Source of the DNA: Chloroflexota bacterium
Lineage (GTDB): Bacteria; Chloroflexota; Limnocylindria; Limnocylindrales; CSP1-4
Length of the DNA stretch: 33,604 bases
NCBI GenBank assembly: GCA_016875645.1
Contig: VGPE01000003.1
Span: 1 to 33,604, forward strand
Reading direction: 5' to 3'
Numbering within the stretch: position 1 is the first letter of the stretch; every line of letters begins with the position of its first letter. Under the pieces are notes generated by a model, which was given only the letters and a program-made list of their open reading frames with translations, made no database searches and was not told where the DNA came from. Position numbers and translations under genes: made by a program. Positions 21,582-33,604 of this stretch are shown one piece after another.

Positions 21582-22856
21582 GTGCGCCCGGTCACGGTCC
21601 TGATCCTCCACCCGCCATCCCCCGCAGACGGTGGCGAGCCCGTCCGCTGGCTTGCGACCGCCCGCGAGGTCATCGCCGAGGGGCATCGCGCCGCCTTCGT
21701 GGCGGCCGGGGCGGAACACGTGCGCGTCGTGAGCCAGGATGGCGGGCCGCTCACGTTCGGCCAGCGACTGCGCTCCCTGGCGCGCGAGGTGGTCGAGGCG
21801 ACCCTGCCCGGCCGTCGCCATGGCCTCGTCGTCATCGGGTCGGGGGCGATGCCGCTGGCGCGCCGCTTGGACCTCGAGGAGTTCGTCAGGGTGGCCCGCA
21901 GTGTCGCGCGACGCCCGGTTGCGCTCGCCAACAGCTACTACTCGGCCGACGCCGTTGCGATCCCGGACGCGGCCATCCTCCTGGCCCTGCCGGACCTGCC
22001 GTCTGATAACGCGCTCCCGCGCTGGCTCGCGGAGCGGGCCGGCGTGCCCGTGCGCGATCGCCGGAACGTCTGGCGCCTCAGTGTCGACATCGACTCGCCA
22101 CTCGATGTGGTCCTGCTCGCCGGTGATCCCGGTTGTCCGCCGGCACTCCGCGCGCTCGCCCGCGAAATCGCGGCCGGTGCCCCCGAGTTCACCGACGCCC
22201 TGCGTGGCGTCGTGGCGGTGATGGCGGACCGGCGCTCTGAGCTCTTCGTGGCCGGCCGCTCGTCGTCACGGACCCTGCGCTGGCTCGAGACCCGTGTGGC
22301 CTGCCGCGTCCGCGCCCTCATCGAGGAGCGGGGCATGCGCTCTGGCACCGCCCTTGCGCTGGGGGACCTCGACGAGGAACGCGACCAGCCACCGGCCGTC
22401 CCGGCGGCCTCGGTCGAGCTCGCCCCGCCGCGATCGCTGCTGGCGCTGGCCCTTGACGAATCCGGCCCGCGACAATTGGCACCGCTGATCGGTCAGCTCT
22501 GCGACGCGGCGGTGCTCGACAGCCGGGTCCTGCTGGCGCACCGGCTCGGGAGCGACGAGCGGCGCTGGCCACCGCTGGCACAGCGGCTCGCGTCCGATCT
22601 CCTCCGCCCTGACGAGGTGCGCGATCCGTGGCTGCGCGAGCTGACGCGGCGGGCATTGGCCGCGCGCCGGCCGATCCTGCTGGGTGGGCACACCCTGGTG
22701 GGACCCGGGCTGCCCCTGATCCCCGGTGCCGTTCGCTGGTTGGATCAGCCGGAGGAGCCGGAGGAGCCGGAGAAGCCGGCCGCGCCGGAGCCGGAGGAGC
22801 CGGCCGCGCCGTCGGATGCGCGGCTGCGGCCGAGCCTCTGGGATGAGGCGACATGA
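21582..22856 (+). CDS. Hypothetical protein with a possible CofC/MobA-like nucleotidyltransferase N-domain
   Basis: LVVIGSGAMPL and LSVDIDSPLDV resemble the CofC/MobA DxP and DxDTxxD motifs. Family assignment is weak. Confidence 0.6.
   Translation: MRPVTVLILHPPSPADGGEPVRWLATAREVIAEGHRAAFVAAGAEHVRVVSQDGGPLTFGQRLRSLAREVVEATLPGRRHGLVVIGSGAMPLARRLDLEEFVRVARSVARRPVALANSYYSADAVAIPDAAILLALPDLPSDNALPRWLAERAGVPVRDRRNVWRLSVDIDSPLDVVLLAGDPGCPPALRALAREIAAGAPEFTDALRGVVAVMADRRSELFVAGRSSSRTLRWLETRVACRVRALIEERGMRSGTALALGDLDEERDQPPAVPAASVELAPPRSLLALALDESGPRQLAPLIGQLCDAAVLDSRVLLAHRLGSDERRWPPLAQRLASDLLRPDEVRDPWLRELTRRALAARRPILLGGHTLVGPGLPLIPGAVRWLDQPEEPEEPEKPAAPEPEEPAAPSDARLRPSLWDEAT
22749..22811 (+). repeat. 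In-frame 9-bp-unit tandem repeat encoding PEEPEEPEKPAAPEPEEPAAP
   Basis: CCGGAGGAG / CCGGAGAAG / CCGGCCGCG units near the 3' end of the CDS. Confidence 0.7.
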
Positions 22857-24010
22857 CGGCGCCCCTGTCCGATGCCGAGCTGGCCGAGATCATCGGGCGG
22901 GAGATCGACGGTGCGGGCGGGGCGATCCCGTTCGCCCGCTTCATGGAGCTTGCGCTCTATGACCCGGATCACGGGTACTACCTCCAGCCACGACCTGCCG
23001 CCGGCCGGCACGGCGCAGACTTCCTGACGGCGCCCGAGCTGCACCCGATCTTCGGCCAGGTGGTTGCCCGCCAGATCGCGGAGATGCGATCCCGCCTGGG
23101 CGAACCGCCCGACTTCACCATCCGGGAGTACGCGGCCGGCAGTGGCGCGCTGGCCGAGGCGATCCTGGGCGAGATGGGCGCGGACGTCCGCTACGAAGCG
23201 ATCGAGCTCAACCGGCATCGGCGTGCGGAGCTGGCAGCGCGCCTGCCCCTGGCGCGGGTCACGGCCGGCGCGTCCGACACCCCGATCACCGGGGTCGTCC
23301 TCGCCAACGAGCTGCTGGACGCTCTGCCCGTCCACCGCGTGGTGATGCGCGGCGGGCGCCTGCGGGAGGTCTACGTTCGACGAGGCGAAACCGCCCGGTC
23401 CTTCACCGACCAGGAGGGCGAGCCCTCCACGCCGGCCCTCGCGGCACGCCTGGCGGCCGAGGGCGTGGACCTTGCCGACGGTCAGCGGAGTGAAGTCAAC
23501 CTTGGCATCGAGGCGTGGCTGGCCGAAGCAGCCACGGGGCTGCACCGCGGCTACATGCTGATCGTCGACTACGGGTACCGGGCCGCGGACCTCTATTCCG
23601 AGCGCAGGGGGGCCGGCACGTTGCTGAGCTACTCGGGCCACCGCGTGGTCGACGATCCGTACGCCGACGTCGGACGGCAGGACCTCACCGCCCACGTGGA
23701 CTTCACGGCCGTGGAACGTGCCGCACGTCGAGCCGGCCTGACGCCCCTGGGCCTCACGAGCCAGGCGGAGTTCCTCGTCGGGGCCGGCGCGGAAACCGTC
23801 GTGGAGCGCGTCCGGACTGATCCCGCGACCGACCTGGCGGGTTGGGTTGCGCTCCGCTCCGCGCTCGGCCGGCTGCTGGATCCCCGTGCCATGGGCGCCT
23901 TCAAGGTGTGCGTGCTTGGCCGAGGGATCCCGATCGAGCCACCGCTGCAGGGTCTCGCGTACCGCATCGCGGGGCCACCGGCGGCGGCACCGGGCGGGGA
24001 CGCACAGTAG
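22853..24010 (+). CDS. SAM-dependent methyltransferase, MidA/NDUFAF7 family
   Basis: IPFARFMELALYDPDHGYY, DFLTAPELHPIFG, EYAAGSGALA, ANELLDALPVH, VDYG, GRQDLTAHVDF, MGAFKV. Confidence 0.9.
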   Translation: MTAPLSDAELAEIIGREIDGAGGAIPFARFMELALYDPDHGYYLQPRPAAGRHGADFLTAPELHPIFGQVVARQIAEMRSRLGEPPDFTIREYAAGSGALAEAILGEMGADVRYEAIELNRHRRAELAARLPLARVTAGASDTPITGVVLANELLDALPVHRVVMRGGRLREVYVRRGETARSFTDQEGEPSTPALAARLAAEGVDLADGQRSEVNLGIEAWLAEAATGLHRGYMLIVDYGYRAADLYSERRGAGTLLSYSGHRVVDDPYADVGRQDLTAHVDFTAVERAARRAGLTPLGLTSQAEFLVGAGAETVVERVRTDPATDLAGWVALRSALGRLLDPRAMGAFKVCVLGRGIPIEPPLQGLAYRIAGPPAAAPGGDAQ

Positions 24011-24131
24011 AATGCCCGTGGCGCCTCGGGTCCGATCGCCGCAGATTCACCTGCCCTTCACCGGGCGACCGCCGGACCGTTCAGCGGCGCTGCGTTCCGC
24101 CCGGGCAGGACGCATGAAACATGAGGTTGAC

Positions 24132-24488
24132 GTGACCGGCGTCTGGTACGTGCTGGGCTTCGCGTTCGCGGGGGTCTCGTTCGTGTTCCTGACGATCGGC
24201 GCGTCCTGGCTGCTCACCCACCGCAACAAGGGCGACCATCACAAGGGACTGCCCTACGAGAGCGGCATCGATACGTACGGCGACCCACACGCGCGGTTCG
24301 GCCTCTCGTTCTACATCTACGCTCTGCTCTTTGTCGCCTTCGACATTGAGGTCATCTTCATCTACCTCTGGGCGATCATCTTCAAGGACCTGTTGCTGGG
24401 CGGCTTCGTGAGCATGCTCATCTTCGTGGCCATCCTGATGCTGGGGCTCGCCTACGCCTGGCGGAAGGGAGTGCTCACGTGGCGCTGA
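24132..24488 (+). CDS. nuoA: NADH-quinone oxidoreductase subunit A
   Basis: [35 protein letters not shown] start after GAGGT. A TAGAAT -10 candidate lies at 24008-24013. Confidence 0.93.
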
Positions 24489-25240
24489 CTCCTGATGCGC
24501 CCGGTGCCCCCGGTGGCGCCGCCCCCGGCGACGTGACCGCAGGCGCCTCCGGGCAGGCCGGAACCATGCCGGTCGCCATGCCGGCGGATTCGTCGCGGGC
24601 GCTCACCGAGGCGATCGTCGTCCCCAATTCGCTGTGGACCTCGGCCAACCCGATTGCCTACAACGGCGGACGGCCCGCAGAGATCACGCACCTGCGCGAG
24701 TGGGCGCAGACCGAGGATGCTCGACGCGACAACGCCCGCTGGGGGGCGCTCGAGGTGATCCCGACCAAGGCGGACTACGTGCTGGACCTCATCCGCGCGA
24801 ACAGCCTCTGGCCGCTCCTGTCGGGACTGGCGTGCTGTGCCATCGAGATGATGTCGGCGGCCACCAGCAAGAACGATATGGACCGCTGGGGGATGTTCCC
24901 GTTCCGCGCCAGTCCCCGCCAGGCCGACGTGCTGATCGTGGCGGGAACCCTGACCACGAAGATGTCCGGCCCGCTGCTCCGGCTCTGGGAGCAGATGCCG
25001 GAGCCCAAGTGGTGCGTGGCGATGGGTGACTGCACCGTGTCGGGCGGCCGCTACAAGCGCAGCTACTCCACGGTCGAGGGAATCGACCGGATCATGCCGG
25101 TCGACGTGTACGTGCCCGGCTGTCCCCCGCGACCCGAGGGGCTGATCTTCGGGATGATGAAGCTGCAGCAGCTCGTCAAAGACCGCCGCGGCCACTGGCC
25201 CGAGCGGATGGTTGGGCCCAACGTGCCCGACGGCGTCTGA
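24479..25240 (+). CDS. nuoB: NADH-quinone oxidoreductase subunit B (start may be downstream)
   Basis: [38 protein letters not shown]; cluster N2 ligands intact. Confidence 0.95.
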
Positions 25241-25251
25241 GCGGGACGATC

Positions 25252-25803
25252 ATGGATCCAGCGTTCAAGCGGCGGCTCGAGACCCGCTTCCGCGGCGTTC
25301 TCCTGGGCCCGGTCCACCAGCGCCACGACGAGACCGAGATCCGGGTGGGCCCGGGCGATGTCTCCGCGGTCATGCGCGCCCTCCACGACGAGCCGACCTT
25401 TCGCTTCGAGTTCCTCTCGGACGTGTGTGGCGTGGACACCGGCGTCGTGATGCAGGTGGTCTACCACCTCTGGAGCGAGACGACCGCGGACTGGCTGCGG
25501 GTCATCGCGGACGGCCTGTCGCGCGACGATCCGCGGGTCCCATCACTCACCCCGTTGTGGCCGGGTGCGGAGTGGATGGAACGCGAGGCCTACGACATGT
25601 TCGGCATCACGTTCGAGGGGAACCGCGACCTGCGGCGCATCTACATGCCGCCTGACTACATGGCGTTTCCGCTCCGCAAGGACTTCTATCTGCCCGACGA
25701 TGCGGCCCGTTCGCCCGGGGCCGGCGTTCGGCATGTCGAGCAGTCGCACGCCCCGGTGAATGCCGACCCGTCGGTCACGGTCCGGACGGCCCGCGGAGCC
25801 TGA
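25252..25803 (+). CDS. nuoC: NADH-quinone oxidoreductase subunit C
   Basis: LSDVCGVD, VVYHLWS, WMEREAYDMFGITFEG, FPLRKDF. Confidence 0.93.
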   Translation: MDPAFKRRLETRFRGVLLGPVHQRHDETEIRVGPGDVSAVMRALHDEPTFRFEFLSDVCGVDTGVVMQVVYHLWSETTADWLRVIADGLSRDDPRVPSLTPLWPGAEWMEREAYDMFGITFEGNRDLRRIYMPPDYMAFPLRKDFYLPDDAARSPGAGVRHVEQSHAPVNADPSVTVRTARGA

Positions 25804-25804
25804 C

Positions 25805-27025
25805 ATGGTGACCCACAGCCGGCAACCTTCGGCCGACGACCCCCGCGTCCTGCTGGACCAGGAAATCGGCGTCTTCGAGCCGGTCCCGCCGTATCCCCCG
25901 CGCACGGAGCGCGAAGCCGAGTTCTACACCCTCGGCGACGGCGAGATGTTCGTGAACATGGGCCCCCAGCACCCGTCCACCCACGGTGTGTTGCGGATCG
26001 TGCTCAAGCTCAACGGCGAGCAGGTGGTCGACCTGGATCCGGTGCTCGGCTACCTCCACCGCGGCGTCGAGAAGATCTGTGAGAACAGCGACTACCACCA
26101 CATCGTCAACCAGCTGGACCCGCTCGAGTACATCTCGTCGCTGTTCATGGAGTGGCCCTACGTCCAGGCCGCGGAGAAGCTCCTGGACCTGGAGGTCCCC
26201 CGCCGCGCCGAATACATCCGTGTCCTGTCGGGCGAGCTCAACCGCATCGCCAGTCACGCGCTGTTCATGGGCTGGTTCGCACTGGACCTCGGCGGGCTGA
26301 CGCCGATCCTGTGGAGCTTCATCGAGCGCGACGAGATCGTGGAGATGCTCGGCGCGCTGACCGGCGCCCGGATGCTCTTCAACTACTTCCGGATCGGCGG
26401 CGTGAACGGCGACCTGAACCACGAGTTCATGAGCCGCCTCGGGTCCTGGATGAGCCGCGCCGCGACGCAGATCGAAGCCAACACAAAGCTTCTCAACGAG
26501 AACGAGATCTTCGTCCGGCGGGCCCGCGGCCTCGGCCGGATGGACCGCGAGATGGCCCTCCGGATGTGCGTCACCGGGCCGAACCTGCGCGCGACCGGCG
26601 TCCCGTTCGACGTCCGGCGTGCCCACCCCTATTCCATCTACCCGGAGCTGGACTTCGACGTCCCGACCCGCACGGAAGGCGACTCGCTGGCGCGGTACCT
26701 GCTCCGGGTCGACGAGGTGAAGCAGAGCCTGCGCATCATCGACCAGTGCCTGCACCAGATGCCCGACGGGCCGATCATGGCCCGCATCCCACGCCTGATC
26801 CGGCCGCGCCCGGGGCGTGCCTACGGGGCGGTCGAAAGCCCGCGCGGCCAGTACACCATGTACATGATCAGCGACGGAACCGACCAGCCCTTCCGGCTGC
26901 GGATCCACGATCCATCGTTTGTGCATCTCGGGTCGGTCGGTCGCCTGGTGCCGGGCAACCTGGTCGCCGACACCATGGCCATCATGGCGAGCCTCGACCC
27001 GGTCATGGGCGGCGTCGACAAGTGA
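25805..27025 (+). CDS. nuoD: NADH-quinone oxidoreductase subunit D
   Basis: NMGPQHPSTHGVLR, GYLHRGVEK, ELNRIASH, FRIGGV, VESPRG, SLDPVMGGVDK. No NiFe CxxC motifs, so not a hydrogenase large subunit. Confidence 0.95.
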   Translation: MVTHSRQPSADDPRVLLDQEIGVFEPVPPYPPRTEREAEFYTLGDGEMFVNMGPQHPSTHGVLRIVLKLNGEQVVDLDPVLGYLHRGVEKICENSDYHHIVNQLDPLEYISSLFMEWPYVQAAEKLLDLEVPRRAEYIRVLSGELNRIASHALFMGWFALDLGGLTPILWSFIERDEIVEMLGALTGARMLFNYFRIGGVNGDLNHEFMSRLGSWMSRAATQIEANTKLLNENEIFVRRARGLGRMDREMALRMCVTGPNLRATGVPFDVRRAHPYSIYPELDFDVPTRTEGDSLARYLLRVDEVKQSLRIIDQCLHQMPDGPIMARIPRLIRPRPGRAYGAVESPRGQYTMYMISDGTDQPFRLRIHDPSFVHLGSVGRLVPGNLVADTMAIMASLDPVMGGVDK

Positions 27026-27152: not shown

Positions 27153-28493
27153 ATGACCACCGTTTCGCGGGCGTGGGGCCGGCTGACGCTGCCCGGGAAG
27201 ATCTTCTTCACGGTCGTGCCGCTGCTGCTCGTGCTCGGGCTGGGCGGGCTGATCGCGATCATGCTGCTGGGGCCGCTCGTGCTCCAGATCCTCGGCGACA
27301 ACCTGCCGCTCGTGCGGTTCGTCATCGCTGCAACCGCGGTGCTGCTCGCCGCGATCCCGATCGCCTTCCTGAACATCTTCATGGAAATGAAGGTCATTGC
27401 CTTCATGAACCTGCGGATCGGCCCCGATCGGGTTGGTCCCTGGGGCACCCTCCTGTCGGTCGTCCACGGGCTCAAGGTGCTCGGCAAGGAAGACTTCACC
27501 CCGACCGGCGCCGACCGGACCATCTTCACCTTGGCGCCGGTGGTGGTCTTCCTGGGCACCGTGATGTCGTTCCTGGTCATCCCGTTTGCACCCGGGCTGT
27601 TTGGCCAGGACTTCAACATCGGGCTGCTGTACTTCTTCGCGGTCGGCGGCCTGACGGTGGTCGGGCTGATGATGGCCGGCTGGGCCAGCTTCAACAAGTA
27701 CTCGCTCCTGGGCGGGCTCCGCGCCGCGGCGCAGATCGTCTCGTACGAGATCCCGTTGACGCTTTCGGTCGTCGGCATCCTCATGCTGGCCGGCACGATG
27801 AGCCTCAACCAGATCGTGCTCAACCAGTCCGGCTCGTTCCTGGACTGGTACGTGTTCCAGCAGCCGCTGGGCGCATTGATCTTCCTGATCGCCATCACCG
27901 CCGAGGCCAATCGCGCCCCGTTCGACCTGACCGAAGCCGATTCGGAGATCGTGGCGGGCTTTGCAACCGAGTACTCGGGCATGCGCTTCGGCTTCCTGTT
28001 CTTCGCCGAGTACGTGAACATGTTCATCGTCTCGGCCCTCACCGTGACGCTGTTCTTCGGCGGCTGGAACGCGCCGTTCGACTGGCCGTTCCCGATCAGC
28101 GCGAACCTCGATCCGGCGAGCCTCGGAATCGGGCTGCTGATCCTGGTGGCGGTGGTCCCCCTGATCGGAACCCTCGCGCTGGCAGCGCCGTTCTGGCTCA
28201 TGCGCAGCTCCATGCCCACCTGGCAGGCACTCGTGATCGGGTTCGTGCTGTTCAACGTGCTGGCGGTCGCGGCGGTCCTCGGCTGGGCCTTCGTCAGCTG
28301 GGAGTGGGTCGTCGGATTGCTCTGGTCTATGATCAAGGCCTACGGGTTCGTGTTCTTCTTCGTCTGGCTGCGCGGTACGCTGCCCCGCGTCCGGATCGAT
28401 CAGCTGATGAATTTCGCGTGGAAGTGGCTGCTGCCCGCGGCGCTTCTGAACCTGTTCGTGACAGCGCTCGCGATCATCGTGCTGGGCCGCTGA
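27153..28493 (+). CDS. nuoH: NADH-quinone oxidoreductase subunit H (extended, 446 aa)
   Basis: RIGPDRVGPWG, NKYSLLGGLRAAAQIVSYEIP, AEANRAPFDLTEADSEIVAGFATEYSG, LPRVRIDQLM..WKWLLP. Confidence 0.94.
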   Translation: MTTVSRAWGRLTLPGKIFFTVVPLLLVLGLGGLIAIMLLGPLVLQILGDNLPLVRFVIAATAVLLAAIPIAFLNIFMEMKVIAFMNLRIGPDRVGPWGTLLSVVHGLKVLGKEDFTPTGADRTIFTLAPVVVFLGTVMSFLVIPFAPGLFGQDFNIGLLYFFAVGGLTVVGLMMAGWASFNKYSLLGGLRAAAQIVSYEIPLTLSVVGILMLAGTMSLNQIVLNQSGSFLDWYVFQQPLGALIFLIAITAEANRAPFDLTEADSEIVAGFATEYSGMRFGFLFFAEYVNMFIVSALTVTLFFGGWNAPFDWPFPISANLDPASLGIGLLILVAVVPLIGTLALAAPFWLMRSSMPTWQALVIGFVLFNVLAVAAVLGWAFVSWEWVVGLLWSMIKAYGFVFFFVWLRGTLPRVRIDQLMNFAWKWLLPAALLNLFVTALAIIVLGR

Positions 28494-28539
28494 TGACCCG
28501 CACGGCCAGCATCGCAACGAGCACTCGGAGCGTTCCTCG

Positions 28540-29373
28540 ATGAGCTTGCTGTCGGGCCTGGTGCCCGGTCTGGGCCTGGCGAAGGGCATGGCGCTGGGCC
28601 TCGTGCGCTTCTTCCAGCCCAAGGCCACGATCATGTACCCGGAGGCGGCGCCGGACGTCAGCCCGCGCTTCCGCGGCCGGCTGCAACTGCTGTACGACGA
28701 GTGGGGCACGCTCAAGTGCGAGACGTGCTTCCAGTGCGCCCAGGCCTGCCCGATCGAGTGCATCGACATGGGTGGCATCGACACCAAGGGCCGCTTCCAC
28801 GTCCACTGGGGCCCGCCCGAGACCTACGGCGAGCGACGCGAGGAATCTGCGCTGCGGCGCTCCGGCCGCCCGGTGCCCGACCGCGAGTACGAGCACTTCG
28901 AGCCGATTGATATGAGGGCGGTGGACGAGGCCCTCGCGCGCTACGACTACGACCCAAAGGAGATGCTGCGCATCCTGGAGGCCACGGACGCGGCGTACGG
29001 CTACCTGCCGGTCGCAGCGCTCAAGCGGATCAGCGACGCGACCGGCGCGTGGTACGCGATGCTCTACGGCACGGCGTCCTATTACCGCCATCTGCGCTTC
29101 GATCCGCCGGTTCGAGTCGTCGCGGTCTGTCGCTGCACGAGCTGCCTGATGGCCGGCGGCGGGCGTGTGCTCGAGGTGCTCGAAGCCTCGCTCGGAACCG
29201 AGATCGGGTCAGTGCCGACACATGGTGGTATCCGCATCGAACAGCTGGCGAGCCACATCCCCGGCGCGACCGCACCGCTCGTCACGTTCGACGGGACCAC
29301 CCAGGTGGGGCTCACCGTGGAGTCCGCTGCAGCCTGGGCGCGGACACTCTCGGGCATCGGCGCCAGGGTTTGA
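28540..29373 (+). CDS. Fusion: NuoI N-terminal half (one CxxCxxCxxxCP) + NuoE-like domain
   Basis: TIMYPE..SPRFRGRL..KCETCFQCAQACPIECI is the NuoI N-half. Then YGYLPVAALKRIS..GTASYY..VCRCTSC..LGTEIG..APLVTFDG is the NuoE fold. Confidence 0.85.
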   Translation: MSLLSGLVPGLGLAKGMALGLVRFFQPKATIMYPEAAPDVSPRFRGRLQLLYDEWGTLKCETCFQCAQACPIECIDMGGIDTKGRFHVHWGPPETYGERREESALRRSGRPVPDREYEHFEPIDMRAVDEALARYDYDPKEMLRILEATDAAYGYLPVAALKRISDATGAWYAMLYGTASYYRHLRFDPPVRVVAVCRCTSCLMAGGGRVLEVLEASLGTEIGSVPTHGGIRIEQLASHIPGATAPLVTFDGTTQVGLTVESAAAWARTLSGIGARV

Positions 29374-29377
29374 CCGG

Positions 29378-30727
29378 ATGACCCGATTGCTCGCCACTCC
29401 CGCCGAGTGGCCGCGGATCCTGCTCGCCCGCGCCGAACGGGACATCTCCGTCCCTGACCTGGCACCAGAGACGGGCCCCGACCTCGAGCGGGCCTTCACC
29501 CTCGGCGCGTTCGAGGGATTGCGACTCGCCATTGACGAGCTCGGGCCTGAGGGCGTCATCGGCGAGGTCGAGCGGGCGAACCTTCGGGGCCGCGGCGGCG
29601 CGGGGCACCCGGCGGCGGCCAAGTGGCGAGCGGCACGGGCCCAGGAGAGCAGCCGCCGGTTCGTCGTCGCGAACGGCTACGGCGCCGATCCCGCGTCGTT
29701 CACCGACATGATCCTGATGGAACGCGACCCCTGGGCCATTCTCGAAGGCATCGCGATCGTCGCCTACACGATCCGGGCGACCGAGGCGGTGATCGCGATC
29801 CGGGCCGAGTACACCGAGGCCATCCGCCGGCTCGACGAGGCCATCCTCGCCGCCGAGGAGGCCGGCTTCCTGGGCACCGACATCCTGGAGTCGGGCGTCA
29901 ACCTCACGGTCACGGTCCGGGTGGTGCAGGGTGCATACATGCTGGGCGAGGAGACCGTCCTGCTCAAGGCCCTCGAGGGCAAGCGCGGCCAGCCCGAGCA
30001 GCGGCCGCCCTACCCCGCGGCGCGCGGGCTCTTCGGCCAGCCGACGGTGGTCCACAACGTCGCGACTCTCGCCGCCGTGCCGTGGATCATCGCCAACGGC
30101 GCCGCAGCGTTCGCGGCCATCGGCTCGCCCGACGCACCGGGTACTGCTTTGGTCCAGGTCCGCGGCCTTGAAACGGAGGGCATCGCGGAGGTCCCGACGG
30201 GCACCCCGCTGCGCGAGATCGTTGGCCTAACGGCCGCGTTCGGCGGCGGCCGGAAGATCAAGGCGGTCCTCGTCGGCGGGCCGTCCGGCGGCCTGCTACC
30301 GGCCGACCTGCTCGACACCCCATATGCGTTCGAGGCGCTGCGGTCCGTCGGCGGCCATATCGGCTCGGGCTCCGTGGTCGTGGCCGACGAGCGCGCCTGT
30401 GTCGTGGACCTCGCCCGCCTCCTCACCCGGTTCTGCGCGGATGAAGCGTGCGGCAAGACAATCCCGTGCCGGATCGGCCTCAGACGCCTGGCGGAGATCG
30501 CCGAGCGCGCCACGAACGGCCACCCGCGGCCCACCGACGCCCAACTCATCAGCGACCTCTGCCACGATGTCTCCGAATCCGGGCTGTGCGACCACGAGCG
30601 CCTTGCGACCCTTCCGCTGACGACCGGGATGCGATACTTCCGCTCCGAACTCGACGATCACCTGCTCCGCGGGACGTGCCCTGCCGGCGTCTGCCGGCCG
30701 ATCGCCGTGAGCGGAGCGGCGCACTGA
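29378..30727 (+). CDS. nuoF: NuoF/HydB-like flavoprotein subunit (degenerate motifs)
   Basis: LRGRGGAGHP..KW, GAYMLGEETVLLKALEGKRGQP, GGPSGG, EACGKTIPCRIG, and C-terminal H..CPAGVC. Confidence 0.85.
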   Translation: MTRLLATPAEWPRILLARAERDISVPDLAPETGPDLERAFTLGAFEGLRLAIDELGPEGVIGEVERANLRGRGGAGHPAAAKWRAARAQESSRRFVVANGYGADPASFTDMILMERDPWAILEGIAIVAYTIRATEAVIAIRAEYTEAIRRLDEAILAAEEAGFLGTDILESGVNLTVTVRVVQGAYMLGEETVLLKALEGKRGQPEQRPPYPAARGLFGQPTVVHNVATLAAVPWIIANGAAAFAAIGSPDAPGTALVQVRGLETEGIAEVPTGTPLREIVGLTAAFGGGRKIKAVLVGGPSGGLLPADLLDTPYAFEALRSVGGHIGSGSVVVADERACVVDLARLLTRFCADEACGKTIPCRIGLRRLAEIAERATNGHPRPTDAQLISDLCHDVSESGLCDHERLATLPLTTGMRYFRSELDDHLLRGTCPAGVCRPIAVSGAAH

Positions 30728-30773
30728 TGACACTCTCGTCCCTCGCCCGCATCACCCACGCCCGCGAGATCCG

Positions 30774-33371
30774 ATGACCGACCTGATCGTCCGCCCGGAC
30801 GCCGACGCCACCGCCCTCGCCGAGACGCTGCTCACGATCCAGGCGCCGCAGCGCCCGGTGGCAACGCCGCGCATCCGGATCGAAGTGGACGGTCGCGTCG
30901 TGGAGGGATTCGAGGGCCAGACGATCCTCGAGGTCTGCCGCGACAACGGCATCGAGATCCCGACGCTCTGCTACGAGCCCAAGCTGCCGGGCTTCGGCGC
31001 CTGCCGGATGTGCGTCGTCGAGGTCGAGGGCGAGGACCACCCGCCGATTTCCTGTTCACGCTCGGCTGAGGCGGGCATGAAGGTCCAGACCCAGACCGAG
31101 GAGATGCGCCGGCTGCGCAGAACCAACCTCGAGCTGATCTTCAGCGACCACAACGCGTACTGCCTGCCGCCGTGCCAGAACAAGTGCCCGAGTCACATCG
31201 ACATCCCGGGCTTCCTCAAGATGAACGCCGAGACGAACTGGCGGGAATCCACGCGGATCTTCAAGCGCACGATCCCCTTCCCGTCGGTCCTCGGCCGGGT
31301 CTGCCCTGCCCCGTGCGAGGAGCACTGCCGGCGCGACGAGGTGGACGAGGCGATCGCGATCCGCGACTCGCACCGCTACGCCGGCGACCAGGTGCTCAAG
31401 CAGATGAACGACCAGGGCATCGACCCGCCCGTCCCGTTCGAGCTGCGCGAGAAGAGCGGGCGCCGGGTGGCGGTGATCGGATCCGGGCCCGCGGGCGCTG
31501 CCGCGGCGTACTACCTGCTCATCGTCGGCCACGACGTGACGATCTTCGAGCGTGACGCGGCTCCGGGCGGCATGCTCCGCTACGGCATCCCCCAGTACCG
31601 CCTGCCCAAGGTCGAGGTGCTCGAGGGCGAGTACGAGAGCATCACCCGCCTCGGCGGCCGCTTCGTGTGCAACCAGGGCCTGGGTCGCGACTTCACGCTC
31701 GACGACCTCCAGAACCAGGGCTACGACGCGGTCCTCGTCGCGATCGGGTGCTACGACACCAATAAGCTCGGGATCCCGGGTGAGGACGCCGACGGCGTCA
31801 TCGACGGACTCGAGTACCTGCGGACCGCGACGCTCGGCCTGGAGTACCCGGGCCACAAGGGCAGCCGGGTGGTCGTGATCGGCGGCGGCTTCACCTCGAT
31901 GGACTGCACGCGCACGTCCGTGCGCCAGGGTGCCGCCGACGTGACCCTCGTTTACCGGCGCGACATGAAGGACATGCCGGCGTCGAACGAGGTCCACGAG
32001 GCGATCGAGGAAGGCGCGACGGCGATCTTCCAGGCCGGCCCGGTCCGGGTCGTCACCGACGCGAATAACAAGGTGACCGGCGTTGAGTTCATCCGGATGC
32101 GCCTGGGCGAGCCCGACGCATCCGGCCGGCGACGCCCGGAACCGGCGGCCGGCACCGAGTTCACGCTGCCCTGCGACCGGGTGCTGCTGGCGATCGGCCA
32201 GGGCCCCGACCTGTCGTGGATCGGGCCCGGCAGCGAGGGCCCCAAGCCGAATCGCCAGCGCCGTCTGGCGGCTGACGCAGTCACCTTCGCCACCGGGCGG
32301 CCCGGCGTGTTCGGGACCGGCGACGTCCGCATCGGGTCCGCAACGGTCGTGGAAGCCGTCGCCGAGGGTCGGCGGGCCGCCTACGCGGCGGACGCCTACG
32401 TGCGCGGGATGGACCTCGATGCGATCCGGACGCGCCAGACCCTGGCCGAGCCGAAGCCGGAGTTCCTCTCGATCGTGCCGTTCACGAGCGAGGCCAAGGA
32501 GCCGCGCTACCGCATGACGGCCATGGAGCCCGAGGCGCGCAACACCAACTACATCGAGTACGAGATCCCGTATACCCGCGAGGCGGCCGTCGCCGAGTCC
32601 ACGCGCTGTCTCCAGTGCACGTGCGAGGCGATCGGGTTCTGCGACCTGCGGCGCCTGGGGATCGAGTACGGCACGACACTGCGCACCCTGGAGCCGCAGC
32701 ATCACAGTGGGGCGGGCCATCGCTCGGTGACCGAGAACCGGTTCACAGGCACCAATCACGACTACCTTCGCGACGACAGCCACGCCTTCATCCTGCGCGA
32801 GCCCTCGCGCTGCATCGACTGCGGACGCTGCGCCAACGTCTGTGCGGAGGTCGTTGGGGCCGCCTGCTACGACTTCATGCGGATCGGCTTCGACACGCTC
32901 GTGACGACGCCGCTCGACATGAGCCTCAACGACACCCCGTGCGTGTCCTGCGGCCGCTGTGCGGAGACGTGCCCGACCGGCGCCCTCATGCCCAAGCCCC
33001 GCGTCCTGCAGAAGTACGAGGTGGACGAGAGCCGCTGCATCCTGTGCGGCATCTGCGTGGATGCCTGCCCGTACGACGCGCTGCGCGACAGCACCGAGCT
33101 CGAGCTTGCGCACGACAGCCGTGTGCAGCCGATGATCGACCTGCTGGCGTATTCAGCCACGGCACGCGACACCGAGGTCAGCTACATCCGACGCGAGCGC
33201 GACTGGGCCGAACGGGCCATGGCCGAGGGCCGCCTGCTCGATCCCGGCCGCCTCCTGCCCGTCCTGCCCGCAACGATCGGTGCGCGCGTTCCCGGCGCCG
33301 GTGGCGAGGGCAACGGTCACGGCCATGGCAACGGCCACGGCTCGGCGTCACTGCCTGCCCATCACAAGTAA
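30774..33371 (+). CDS. Multidomain Fe-S flavoprotein: NuoG-like 2Fe-2S N-domain + GltD/NfnB-like FAD/NAD(P) domain + 2x[4Fe-4S] + NuoI C-terminal half
   Basis: IPTLCY..GACRMCVVEV; PCQNKCPSHIDIPG; GRVCPAPCEEHCRR; VAVIGSGPAG; VIGGGFTSMD; VYRR; RCIDCGRCANVC; CVSCGRCAETCPTGAL; YEVDESRCILCGICVDACPYDAL..ELA. Confidence 0.88.
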   Translation: MTDLIVRPDADATALAETLLTIQAPQRPVATPRIRIEVDGRVVEGFEGQTILEVCRDNGIEIPTLCYEPKLPGFGACRMCVVEVEGEDHPPISCSRSAEAGMKVQTQTEEMRRLRRTNLELIFSDHNAYCLPPCQNKCPSHIDIPGFLKMNAETNWRESTRIFKRTIPFPSVLGRVCPAPCEEHCRRDEVDEAIAIRDSHRYAGDQVLKQMNDQGIDPPVPFELREKSGRRVAVIGSGPAGAAAAYYLLIVGHDVTIFERDAAPGGMLRYGIPQYRLPKVEVLEGEYESITRLGGRFVCNQGLGRDFTLDDLQNQGYDAVLVAIGCYDTNKLGIPGEDADGVIDGLEYLRTATLGLEYPGHKGSRVVVIGGGFTSMDCTRTSVRQGAADVTLVYRRDMKDMPASNEVHEAIEEGATAIFQAGPVRVVTDANNKVTGVEFIRMRLGEPDASGRRRPEPAAGTEFTLPCDRVLLAIGQGPDLSWIGPGSEGPKPNRQRRLAADAVTFATGRPGVFGTGDVRIGSATVVEAVAEGRRAAYAADAYVRGMDLDAIRTRQTLAEPKPEFLSIVPFTSEAKEPRYRMTAMEPEARNTNYIEYEIPYTREAAVAESTRCLQCTCEAIGFCDLRRLGIEYGTTLRTLEPQHHSGAGHRSVTENRFTGTNHDYLRDDSHAFILREPSRCIDCGRCANVCAEVVGAACYDFMRIGFDTLVTTPLDMSLNDTPCVSCGRCAETCPTGALMPKPRVLQKYEVDESRCILCGICVDACPYDALRDSTELELAHDSRVQPMIDLLAYSATARDTEVSYIRRERDWAERAMAEGRLLDPGRLLPVLPATIGARVPGAGGEGNGHGHGNGHGSASLPAHHK

Positions 33372-33449
33372 CGGTCGAAGAGGGACTGGCCCGGGTCGGC
33401 TCGCAGGCCGGTCGCGGGTGCTGCCAGTCAAGGGAGCCAGAGGGAGTTC

Positions 33450-33604
33450 GTGGCGATACCGAACACGGTCCCGTTCATCGGGATCGGCTGGGACGACGTG
33501 CTGTTTCTGATCTTCGCGGCGGCGATGATCGGGACGGCCCTGCTCGTCGTCACGATGAAGGACATCATCCGCTGCGGCCTGGCCATGATCGCCTCCTTCG
33601 CCGC
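33450..33604 (+). CDS. nuoJ: NADH-quinone oxidoreductase subunit J (5' partial, runs off the window)
   Basis: GTG after GGGAG; ..VLFLIFAAAMIGTALLVVTMKDIIRCGLAMIASFA fits the NuoJ TM1-TM2 pattern, at the expected operon position. Confidence 0.75.
   Translation, partial: MAIPNTVPFIGIGWDDVLFLIFAAAMIGTALLVVTMKDIIRCGLAMIASFA

Follow-up and report, generated by a model that had tools for sequence, protein, structure and literature searches.

Respiratory complex I is taken to be an enzyme of reduced nicotinamide adenine dinucleotide (NADH), and the phosphorylated counterpart of this carrier (NADPH) normally enters the respiratory chain only via transhydrogenases. The nuo operon considered here lies at the 3' end of contig VGPE01000003.1 (GenBank assembly GCA_016875645.1) of a Chloroflexota bacterium (Limnocylindria, Limnocylindrales, CSP1-4), of which positions 1 to 33,604 were analysed on the forward strand (the window; 33,604 nucleotides, the full length of the stretch). 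It encodes a complex I in which the position of NuoG is taken by a protein, referred to as G', that carries a GltD/NfnB-type flavoprotein unit together with one half of NuoI. Judged from sequence comparisons, the enzyme probably functions as an NAD(P)H:quinone oxidoreductase that does not bifurcate, NADPH entering at flavin adenine dinucleotide (FAD) and NADH at flavin mononucleotide (FMN).

The closest described systems are NfnABC/StnABC, soluble complexes of the Nfn-Bfu type (Caldicellulosiruptor saccharolyticus, 9bov; Sporomusa ovata, 8oh5; an archaeal enzyme, 9n5u), which contain the same three subunit types as the cassette in the window, whereas the window genes sit in a nuo operon. G' and NfnA/StnC share a [2Fe-2S] domain, a GltD insertion with FAD and two clusters, a His-ligated cluster and a dicluster domain. 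The Fdh-like C-terminal domain of NfnA mediates tetramer formation (PMC10482914), whereas half of NuoI is found there in G'. Moreover, NfnB has the B3/B4 and B2/B5 sites and NfnC a four-Cys C1 site, whereas the window lacks B3/B4/B5 and shows altered C1 and B1 sites. A Bfu-derived input module within a nuo operon has likewise been predicted for the Nuo-Bfu enzymes of Deferribacteres, Proteobacteria, Planctomycetes and Nitrospirae (Schut et al. 2022, PMC9304861). These are described as having a BfuB subunit with the B2-B5 sites and a 14-gene A-N cluster with the BfuABC genes at its centre, in contrast to the GltD unit, the split NuoI and the missing B3-B5 sites of the window; the available text of that study mentions neither a GltD/NADP(H) unit nor a split NuoI for Nuo-Bfu, and its supplementary tables may list more cluster types (PMC9304861). 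Operons of the Mbx-like type combine a GltD-family NAD(P)H flavoprotein, in the place of NuoI, with a membrane module related to that of complex I; the flavoprotein is said to stand in for NuoI, and the complex to be hydrogenase-like, of the Mrp/Mbx type and NAD(P)+-reducing (Degli Esposti 2015, PMC4758237). The window differs from these in that NuoI is kept, albeit split, NuoE and NuoF are present and the NuoH/J/K/L/M/N arm is complete.

With the canonical 14-subunit complex I (Thermus, E. coli, Paracoccus), the window shares the membrane and Q-module subunits, the NuoB cysteines, the NuoD motifs, the FMN and N3 sites of NuoF and, in G', the N1b/N5/N4-type sites. It differs from the canonical enzyme in that E-F-G follow H and lie inside I, the molybdopterin-like domain of NuoG is missing and NuoI is distributed over two polypeptides; it furthermore has an extra FAD/NAD(P)H site, an extra cluster and a degenerate cluster site in NuoE. 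The backbone A-B-C-D-H-I-J-K-L-M-N that is left when the cassette is subtracted corresponds to the gene order of 11-subunit enzymes without an N-module (cyanobacterial NDH-1). Such enzymes have an intact NuoI and receive electrons from ferredoxin or other carriers. By sequence, the input module is placed in the Bfu lineage by descent but lacks the features defining a bifurcating Bfu enzyme, and the whole enzyme is a complex I by subunit content that lacks a one-piece NuoI and the NuoG C-domain. A literature search returned no GltD-bearing NuoG with a split NuoI and no description of a Limnocylindria complex I, although the supplementary tables of PMC9304861 may list such clusters.

The window covers contig C3 in full; the contig belongs to a metagenome-assembled genome (MAG) of 2.85 Mb. 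On its forward strand, the genes are arranged in the order nuoA-B-C-D-H-[I'-E]-F-[G'(GltD)-I'']-J, where I' and I'' denote the two halves of NuoI; nuoK-L-M-N are located on contig C181, which opens with the end of NuoJ, continues with nuoK, L, M and N and gives three matches to PF00361. The initial annotation had suggested an NfnABC-like module wired to a quinone-reducing, ion-pumping arm, with nuoK/L/M/N expected beyond the window. Both proposals are supported, as the nearest relatives of G' and F are NfnA/StnC and NfnB/StnB, nuoJ is followed by K-L-M-N on C181, and the same four genes come after G' and J without interruption in related loci. The tie between the cassette and the Q-module is closer than the initial annotation saw, because the cassette sits inside the split nuoI. 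Genes for all 11 core subunits (A, B, C, D, H, I, J, K, L, M, N) are accounted for, I as two halves. A single set of nuoA, B, C, D and H was detected in the genome by tblastn with the window proteins, and no second complex I was found in it. The conservation of ligands was counted over 79 relatives of I'-E, 89 of G' and 84 of NuoF, with a subgroup of the 57 closest full-length relatives of I'-E. The features of the cassette are as follows:

28573-28800 (+): first NuoI half (I'), I'-E residues 12-87; one CxxCxxCxxxCP motif with Cys60, 63, 66 and 70, found in 79/79 relatives
28897-29349 (+): NuoE-like thioredoxin-type domain, I'-E residues ~120-270; Pfam 2Fe-2S_thioredx, 1e-16
29375-30727 (+): NuoF/NfnB-like FMN subunit, 450 amino acids (aa); Pfam Complex1_51K (1.5e-39) and NADH_4Fe-4S (9e-20) only
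30870-31097 (+): NuoG-type [2Fe-2S] domain of G', residues 33-108; Fer2_4, 3.5e-20; Cys66, 77, 80 and 94 in 89/89 relatives
31161-32408 (+): GltD/NfnB-type unit of G', residues 130-545; two [4Fe-4S] sites, FAD fold and NAD(P)H fold; Fer4_20 and Pyr_redox_2; aligned to 9bov_A and 9n5u_A
32607-32987 (+): remainder of the His-ligated site (Cys612-623) and 2x[4Fe-4S] domain of G', with motif A (Cys680-690) and motif B (Cys723-733); Fer4_Nqo3; alignment with NfnA through motif B
33006-33149 (+): second NuoI half (I''), G' residues 745-792; lone third CxxCxxCxxxCP motif with Cys755, 758, 761 and 765, in 89/89 relatives
33285-33368 (+): Gly/His/Asn-rich C-terminal tail of G' (GNGHGHGNGHG...), seen in the translation; its length varies among relatives

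G' (P0001), the NuoG-equivalent, comprises 865 aa and is encoded by an open reading frame (ORF) at 30774-33371 (+); the gene end had initially been set at 33000, short of its actual end at 33371. All five motifs quoted at that time for a GltD/NfnB-like unit in a NuoG-type subunit are present, namely PPCQNKCPSHIDIPG at residues 132-146, GRVCPAPCE at 174-182, GSGPAG at 236-241, GGGFTSMD at 370-377 and VYRR at 393-396. Pfam assigned Fer2_4 to residues 33-108 (expectation value (E) 3.5e-20), Fer4_20 to 130-209 (1e-17), Pyr_redox_2 to 231-532 (2.4e-26) and, in the C-terminal part, Fer4_Nqo3 to 673-738, with Fer4 dicluster matches at 716-771. It found no molybdopterin domain in G', and the NuoG model TIGR01973 is covered at positions 1-98 and 116-217 only. 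NCBIfam model searches returned no full-length NuoG in the genome, and PRK12814 matched G' with 551 bits, under its cut-off of 916 bits. The placement of the GltD unit "in place of" the NuoG C-domain needs revision: the molybdopterin C-domain is indeed absent, but the unit is inserted in the site of the His-ligated cluster, and it is the second NuoI half that stands at the C-terminus.

The top solved relatives of G' are 9bov_A (3.9e-157), NfnA 9n5u_A (4e-143) and StnC 8oh5_C of S. ovata (5.8e-141), whereas stand-alone NfnB/GltD chains among the PDB sequences match far more weakly (2e-79 to 7.5e-66). Residues 34-765 of G' align to residues 4-699 of 9bov_A, and the GltD unit follows the His-x3-Cys of the His-ligated cluster site, as in the solved NfnA and StnC. 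The Fdh-like C-domain kept by NfnA/StnC is missing from G', where the second NuoI half stands after motif B instead. All cluster cysteines of G', including those of the lone third motif, are present in 89/89 relatives. Relatives show little or no variation in the FAD and NAD(P)H motifs (Y394-R395-R396 among them), which also occur in the NADPH-oxidising NfnA; we take the YRR after the second Rossmann fold to be a mark of NADP(H) binding. The chain 9bov_A, deposited as "Molybdopterin oxidoreductase", is NfnA of the Caldicellulosiruptor NfnABC structure (PMC11829005), and the GltD unit of StnC is described as likewise inserted at the His-ligated cluster site (PMC10482914). The C-terminal tail of G' might be a metal binder or a disordered spacer before nuoJ.

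The gene nuoI exists in two pieces, the first half being fused to the NuoE-like protein and the second forming the C-terminus of G'. The I'-E ORF (28540-29373, +; 277 aa), located two genes upstream of G', opens with the first half: its residues 13-87 match residues 18-81 (of 163) of 8qby_I and 19-88 (of 180) of E. coli NuoI 7awt_I (E ~1e-10; 1.2e-10 for 7awt_I) as well as positions 1-63 (of 121) of the NCBIfam NuoI model TIGR01971. The third motif of G' and the 30 residues beyond it match residues 93-140 (of 163) of Paracoccus denitrificans NuoI 8qby_I (E 9.9e-11) and positions 71-113 (of 121) of TIGR01971. By these alignments, the two pieces complement each other to give a single NuoI, with the break in the loop that separates the two Cys motifs. 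G' contains three CxxCxxCxxxC motifs, at residues 680, 723 and 755, of which the first two (A and B) coincide in the alignment with the A2/A4 dicluster of NfnA; because these two pair with each other, the third motif has no partner inside G'. An ordinary ferredoxin domain formed by motifs B and C, as could be thought from the polyferredoxins among the top matches, is ruled out by the same alignment. The linker between I' and the NuoE-like domain (I'-E residues 88-118; 28801-28896) is highly conserved, with H89, W90, G91, E94, E98, R99, R100, S103, A104, R106, G109, R110 and V112 invariant in 57 sequences.

No intact nuoI was found in the genome, where the NuoI model gave two half matches, neither of them above the NCBIfam cut-off. 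Similarly, no intact NuoI was detected in 5/5 well-assembled genomes of the class (2-30 contigs), which showed the same two half matches 4.2-4.4 kb apart. Among loci with sufficient room, 69/69, 10/10 and 30/31 had both halves on one strand, the first lying 4.1-5.0 kb upstream of the second. A contig of 7733 bases from an independent lake metagenome spans 28400-33604 with 37 differences and no gaps. An assembly artefact is ruled out by this contig and by the collinear relatives described below. The architecture, the split of NuoI and their conservation are well supported, and we state them with high confidence.

Relatives of G' are numerous (at least 7514 at E <=0.001 among 8000 scored), and the best 120 comprise 863-893 aa and are 80-87% identical; I'-E has 2856 relatives, of which the best 120 span its full length. 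At least 577 of 597 contig pattern matches encode a relative of G'. The best 80 of these at least 577 loci are collinear in the order A-B-C-D-H-IE-F-G'-J-K-L-M-N where the contig reaches, each segment being found in 65-80 of the 80. Related loci and proteins are titled Chloroflexota bacterium, Candidatus Limnocylindrales or Limnocylindria; a few relatives with odd labels (Saccharimonadales, Vitreimonas) look like binning errors. A phylum sample of 401 genomes was queried with the I'-E protein and gave matches in 250/401, a count that includes four unpublished genomes (G038, G145, G272, G173), none of which carries a claim singly. In three families of the class, every genome sampled (23/23, 4/4 and 16/16) had the full-length I'-E fusion, and a fourth family gave partial matches in 2/2 genomes; outside the class, none of the matches listed from this sample was a full-length fusion, those found there being of NuoE only or of the NuoI type. 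The fourth family (f4; L100/L101 and L111/L112) has two loci, B-D-IE-F-G' and A-C-H-J-K-L-M-N, with one NuoB, NuoD and NuoH per genome. Three genomes from other Chloroflexota classes contain a B-IE-F-G' cluster (L102, L103, L107) and an A-C-D-H cluster (L108-L110), each amid unrelated genes. No J, K, L, M or N gene was found beside these four-gene clusters, and the three genomes also carry canonical nuo operons; the two-cluster form may be non-pumping or share a membrane arm.

These stand-alone clusters bear on the possibility that the cassette encodes a separate soluble enzyme within the nuo operon, its NuoI-like ends being ordinary ferredoxin motifs that do not join. B-IE-F-G' indeed stands apart from the membrane-subunit genes in the other Chloroflexota classes, and a complex prediction for the two NuoI halves gave weak support: together with four clusters they scored 0.34, the best of three controls reaching 0.00, with a contact agreement of at least 81%, a partner pLDDT (predicted local distance difference test) of at least 56 and no interface reported. 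The mark used for such predictions is reached by 58/80 solved complexes and 2/110 mismatched pairs, and at a score of <=0.60 by 7/80 and both mismatches. However, if the enzyme were soluble, the complex would have no NuoI at all. Moreover, the ends match complementary NuoI halves beyond the Fer4 motifs, a single motif per end cannot form a dicluster alone, the stand-alone clusters still start with nuoB, and two relatives have G'-NuoJ fusions. We therefore regard a separate soluble enzyme as very improbable.

The two fusions to NuoJ (Oxidored_q3) belong to a distant lineage (L114-L193) that is 44% identical to G' and, barring sequencing error, tie G' to the membrane arm. Among the 120 members listed, NCBI names 6/7 of the named ones Thermoleophilia and one Actinobacteria; proteins P0259, P0437 and P0479 were noted for this Thermoleophilia-type lineage. 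A full single operon is present in 29/29 of its loci of at least 12 kb. In the three loci examined, NuoE has all four cysteines. F is ~650-700 aa long there; it begins with a [2Fe-2S]-like part, has the canonical CxxCxxC motif and ends in a Fer4 dicluster, thus representing a complete Bfu-type B subunit (Pfam on L126). The lineage has the full BfuBC cofactor set, which the window enzyme lacks.

In a tree of 145 G'-like proteins (FastTree, midpoint root only, so that it shows one clade and no direction of change), 14 NuoI-tailed proteins, one fragment and P0377 form a single clade with a support of 98. This clade adjoins four Fdh-type proteins and is apart from the other 125 in the tree. P0377 (1049 aa) carries a TPP_enzyme_C domain after the third ferredoxin motif, in place of the NuoI tail, which suggests a link to a 2-oxoacid oxidoreductase. 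Six further proteins (P0253, P0274, P0280, P0314, P0338, P0341) are GltD-inserted and FdhA-like, with ~812-853 aa, and all end in "...DHCARL"; to us, these ends suggest that the called genes stop short at an in-frame TGA, read as selenocysteine, within a domain of the formate-dehydrogenase type.

The NuoE-like domain of the window lacks the canonical second Cys pair. Its cysteines are not conserved across the 79 relatives, many of which have a truncated domain (ORFs of 217-245 aa), and in others I'-E and F are fused in one ORF of ~660-730 aa. The domain is decaying in this lineage (the window and related loci L006-L085). The 57 closest full-length relatives keep Cys197, 199, 202 and His239 invariantly and may contain an unusual cluster.

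The best solved relatives of NuoF are Csac NfnB (9bov_B, 1.1e-104) and StnB (8oh5_B, 2.4e-103), followed by NuoF chains of complex I (1e-79 to 4e-73). NuoF aligns from residue 116 of NfnB (88 of StnB) to ~526 of 584. Because the alignment starts and ends inside NfnB, NuoF is without the N-terminal [2Fe-2S]-like and the C-terminal 2x[4Fe-4S] part of Bfu B subunits; the C-terminal tails across the NuoF family amount to <=6 aa. The glycine-rich loop and the GEET motif (FMN/NADH) are kept. In the N3/B1 CxxCxxC motif, the place of the second Cys is held in the window by Thr362 (30458-30460); among the 84 relatives, Thr occurs in 52, Ser in 24, Ala in 2 and Cys in 5, the latter only in family f4 and other Chloroflexota classes. 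The cluster at this site may be oxygen-ligated or altered. The group Cys435/Cys440/His429 remains in 68/84 relatives.

These features bear on the possibility that the enzyme is a genuine complex I of the Bfu type that bifurcates or confurcates, with NADPH, NAD(H) and ferredoxin coupled at an FMN "flavobicluster". F and G' are indeed nearest to the bifurcating NfnABC, and the Thermoleophilia lineage has, in the same operon, an F with the full domain set and a four-Cys E. In contrast, the F of the window is without the B3/B4/B5 domain, C1 is without its second Cys pair and B1 has Thr for Cys. B3/B4 are reported to be essential for bifurcation, which is abolished by their deletion, and non-bifurcating homologues such as complex I are without B2-B5 (PMC11829005). 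The absence of B3, B4 and B5 together with the altered C1 and B1 ligands argues that the window enzyme is non-bifurcating; it contradicts a bifurcating reading of the window and, with it, the part of the initial annotation that had considered such an NfnABC-like function. For the window, we give Bfu-type coupling hardly any credence.

E and F are also the least conserved peripheral subunits. In the best 80 loci, picked by likeness to G', the median identity was 68.5% for E (over 46% of its length) and 64.9% for F, compared to 76-81% for B, C, D and I'. With a median identity of 84%, the GltD unit ranks with the best-conserved parts; values for G' are inflated because the loci were selected by likeness to it, whereas the comparison of E/F with B/C/D is free of that bias. 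The faster change in E and F fits an FAD route independent of E and F.

An enzyme that uses NADH only would have a GltD unit that is a structural or electron-storing leftover of Nfn, or an NADH binder, without a separate substrate. The intact FMN/NADH motifs of NuoF and the presence of a single complex I in the genome speak for it, and off-path clusters are tolerated in a related enzyme, C1/C2 of StnC being described as a non-functional branch (PMC10482914). Against it stand the high conservation of the GltD unit, subject to the selection just mentioned, and its FAD/NAD(P)H motifs and cluster cysteines, which are invariant or nearly so; decay is shown by E and F, not by G'. Taken together, we regard NADH as the sole donor as rather unlikely.

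The reading that we favour, with somewhat more confidence than doubt, is that the organism's only complex I contains an NfnA/StnC-type G', is non-bifurcating and has NADPH as its physiological donor, as suggested by homology. We infer its subunit contacts, cofactors, nucleotide preference, electron path and pumping as follows. The two NuoI halves would join into one NuoI-like 2x[4Fe-4S] unit (N6a/N6b) on NuoH/B/D, and their fusions to E and G' would hold the input module on the Q-module, replacing the missing NuoG C-domain. NADPH would be oxidised at the FAD, from where electrons would pass via the two GltD clusters to the His-ligated cluster (N5/A3) and then via N6a, N6b and N2 to quinone, while NuoL/M/N would do the pumping. 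NADH would enter at the FMN of NuoF and deliver electrons via N3 and N1b to N4; the same chain could also move electrons between the two nucleotide sites. We take A3 to correspond to N5 of complex I, the cluster passing electrons to NuoI. A3 is described as the His-ligated cluster, and the electron path of NfnA as FAD-A7-A6-A3-A2-A1-B1 (PMC11829005); because it runs from FAD through A7 and A6 to A3, the GltD clusters would feed the N5-equivalent directly. With a built-in GltD-type NAD(P)H site feeding, by homology to NfnA, the cluster before NuoI, the enzyme could be a proton-pumping NADPH:quinone oxidoreductase. It would thereby offer a way to use NADPH directly in respiration, and it is the only complex I found across a class of widespread soil and freshwater bacteria (relatives titled Limnocylindria).

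The genome also contains a gene for PntB, the beta subunit of the membrane transhydrogenase (contig C90, 6173-7555; 572 bits), and the organism thus has a separate link between NADH and NADPH.

Several points weigh against the favoured reading. The sequence comes from a MAG of 371 contigs, with 91% completeness and 4.5% contamination. The putative preference for NADPH has a single source, homology to the NADPH-oxidising NfnA/StnC. NuoF keeps the FMN/NADH motifs, so that NADH is probably a substrate as well; because only one complex I was found, it must even be a major one unless another NADH dehydrogenase, such as NDH-2, exists. Given the PntB transhydrogenase, the organism need not respire NADPH directly. 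The loci that revealed the low conservation of E and F had been picked by likeness to G', and the Thr/Ser in place of the second N3 Cys could weaken the FMN branch or be harmless. Finally, the complex prediction lends weak support to the joining of the NuoI halves, and its pass may reflect memory of solved NuoI.

A further alternative is operation in reverse: driven by the proton motive force, electrons from NADH (via FMN) or quinol would exit through the FAD and yield NADPH, so that the GltD unit would serve as a built-in NADP+ reductase or transhydrogenase branch. The chain FMN-B1-A1-A2-A3-A6-A7-FAD links NAD(H) and NADP(H) in NfnABC/Stn, which are reported to make NADPH in vivo (PMC11829005, PMC10482914), and both nucleotide sites are kept in the window enzyme. 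On the other hand, PntB already gives energy-linked transhydrogenation, and an uncoupled transfer from NADH to NADP+ is unfavoured, with no coupling device (B3/B4, ferredoxin site) left. An obligatory entry at FMN also fits poorly with E and F evolving fastest and E being often truncated. We consider reverse operation unlikely, and oxidation of NADPH at the FAD remains the direction that we prefer.

As for the origin of this arrangement, the three-gene cassette splitting NuoI is a clear natural case of modular evolution: the split preserves a record of how an 11-subunit core acquired an input module, and of how docking, otherwise a role of the NuoG C-domain, can be taken over by gene fusions. 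A more far-reaching scenario, which we put forward tentatively, is that an NfnABC cassette was spliced once into nuoI of an 11-subunit complex I, giving rise to a second, independent nucleotide-linked complex I with a two-polypeptide N6a/N6b. In its Thermoleophilia form, quinone reduction and the proton motive force could be coupled to NADPH, NAD(H) and ferredoxin, while the class of the window would have been pared down to a main NADPH entry at the GltD FAD, with a secondary or decaying FMN branch. If so, the single complex I of the bacteria in this class would respire NADPH directly. With its full Bfu cofactor set, the Thermoleophilia version allows the idea of a bifurcating module on a pumping complex to be put to the test.

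The remaining features of the operon and the gene directly upstream of it are as follows:

22853-24010 (+): Methyltransf_28 (PF02636) gene, directly 5' of nuoA; Pfam E 4.2e-49
24108-24488 (+): nuoA; Pfam Oxidored_q4, 1.8e-31
24479-25240 (+): nuoB; Pfam Oxidored_q6, 4.4e-26; Cys119, 120, 185 and 215, which we take to fit the ligand pattern of cluster N2
25252-25803 (+): nuoC; Pfam Complex1_30kDa, 9e-39
25760-27025 (+): nuoD (start codon uncertain); Pfam Complex1_49kDa, 7.1e-85; HPSTHG and GYLHRGVEK, presumably the quinone-site motifs
27153-28493 (+): nuoH; Pfam NADHdh, 1.1e-105
33450-33604 (+): start of nuoJ, with a GTG start codon and GGAG upstream; runs off the contig end

Elsewhere in the genome, a second NuoF homologue (42% identical) is followed by a NuoG-N-like protein on contig C307 (559-2726), and contig C149 (4403-5677) encodes a molybdopterin protein with one in-frame TGA; the C307 pair and the C149 protein together may constitute an NAD-linked formate dehydrogenase. 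An ordinary GltD is encoded on contig C212. Two RNA runs (X17, X18) contained only contigs of 130-230 bases that were 82-90% alike and derived from relatives; as the libraries may contain DNA, they provide no evidence of transcription.

The family Methyltransf_28 is presumably that of the complex I assembly factor NDUFAF7/MidA. A gene of this family was found just upstream of nuoA in 59/64 related loci holding nuoA and in none of 25 Thermoleophilia-type loci; it may be an accessory gene outside the core finding. The first 24 kb of the window, whose G+C content is ~70%, contain housekeeping genes (amino-acid permease, Lon, DnaJ, ClpB, ABC-2 transporter, PurH, GlpX and HPPK).

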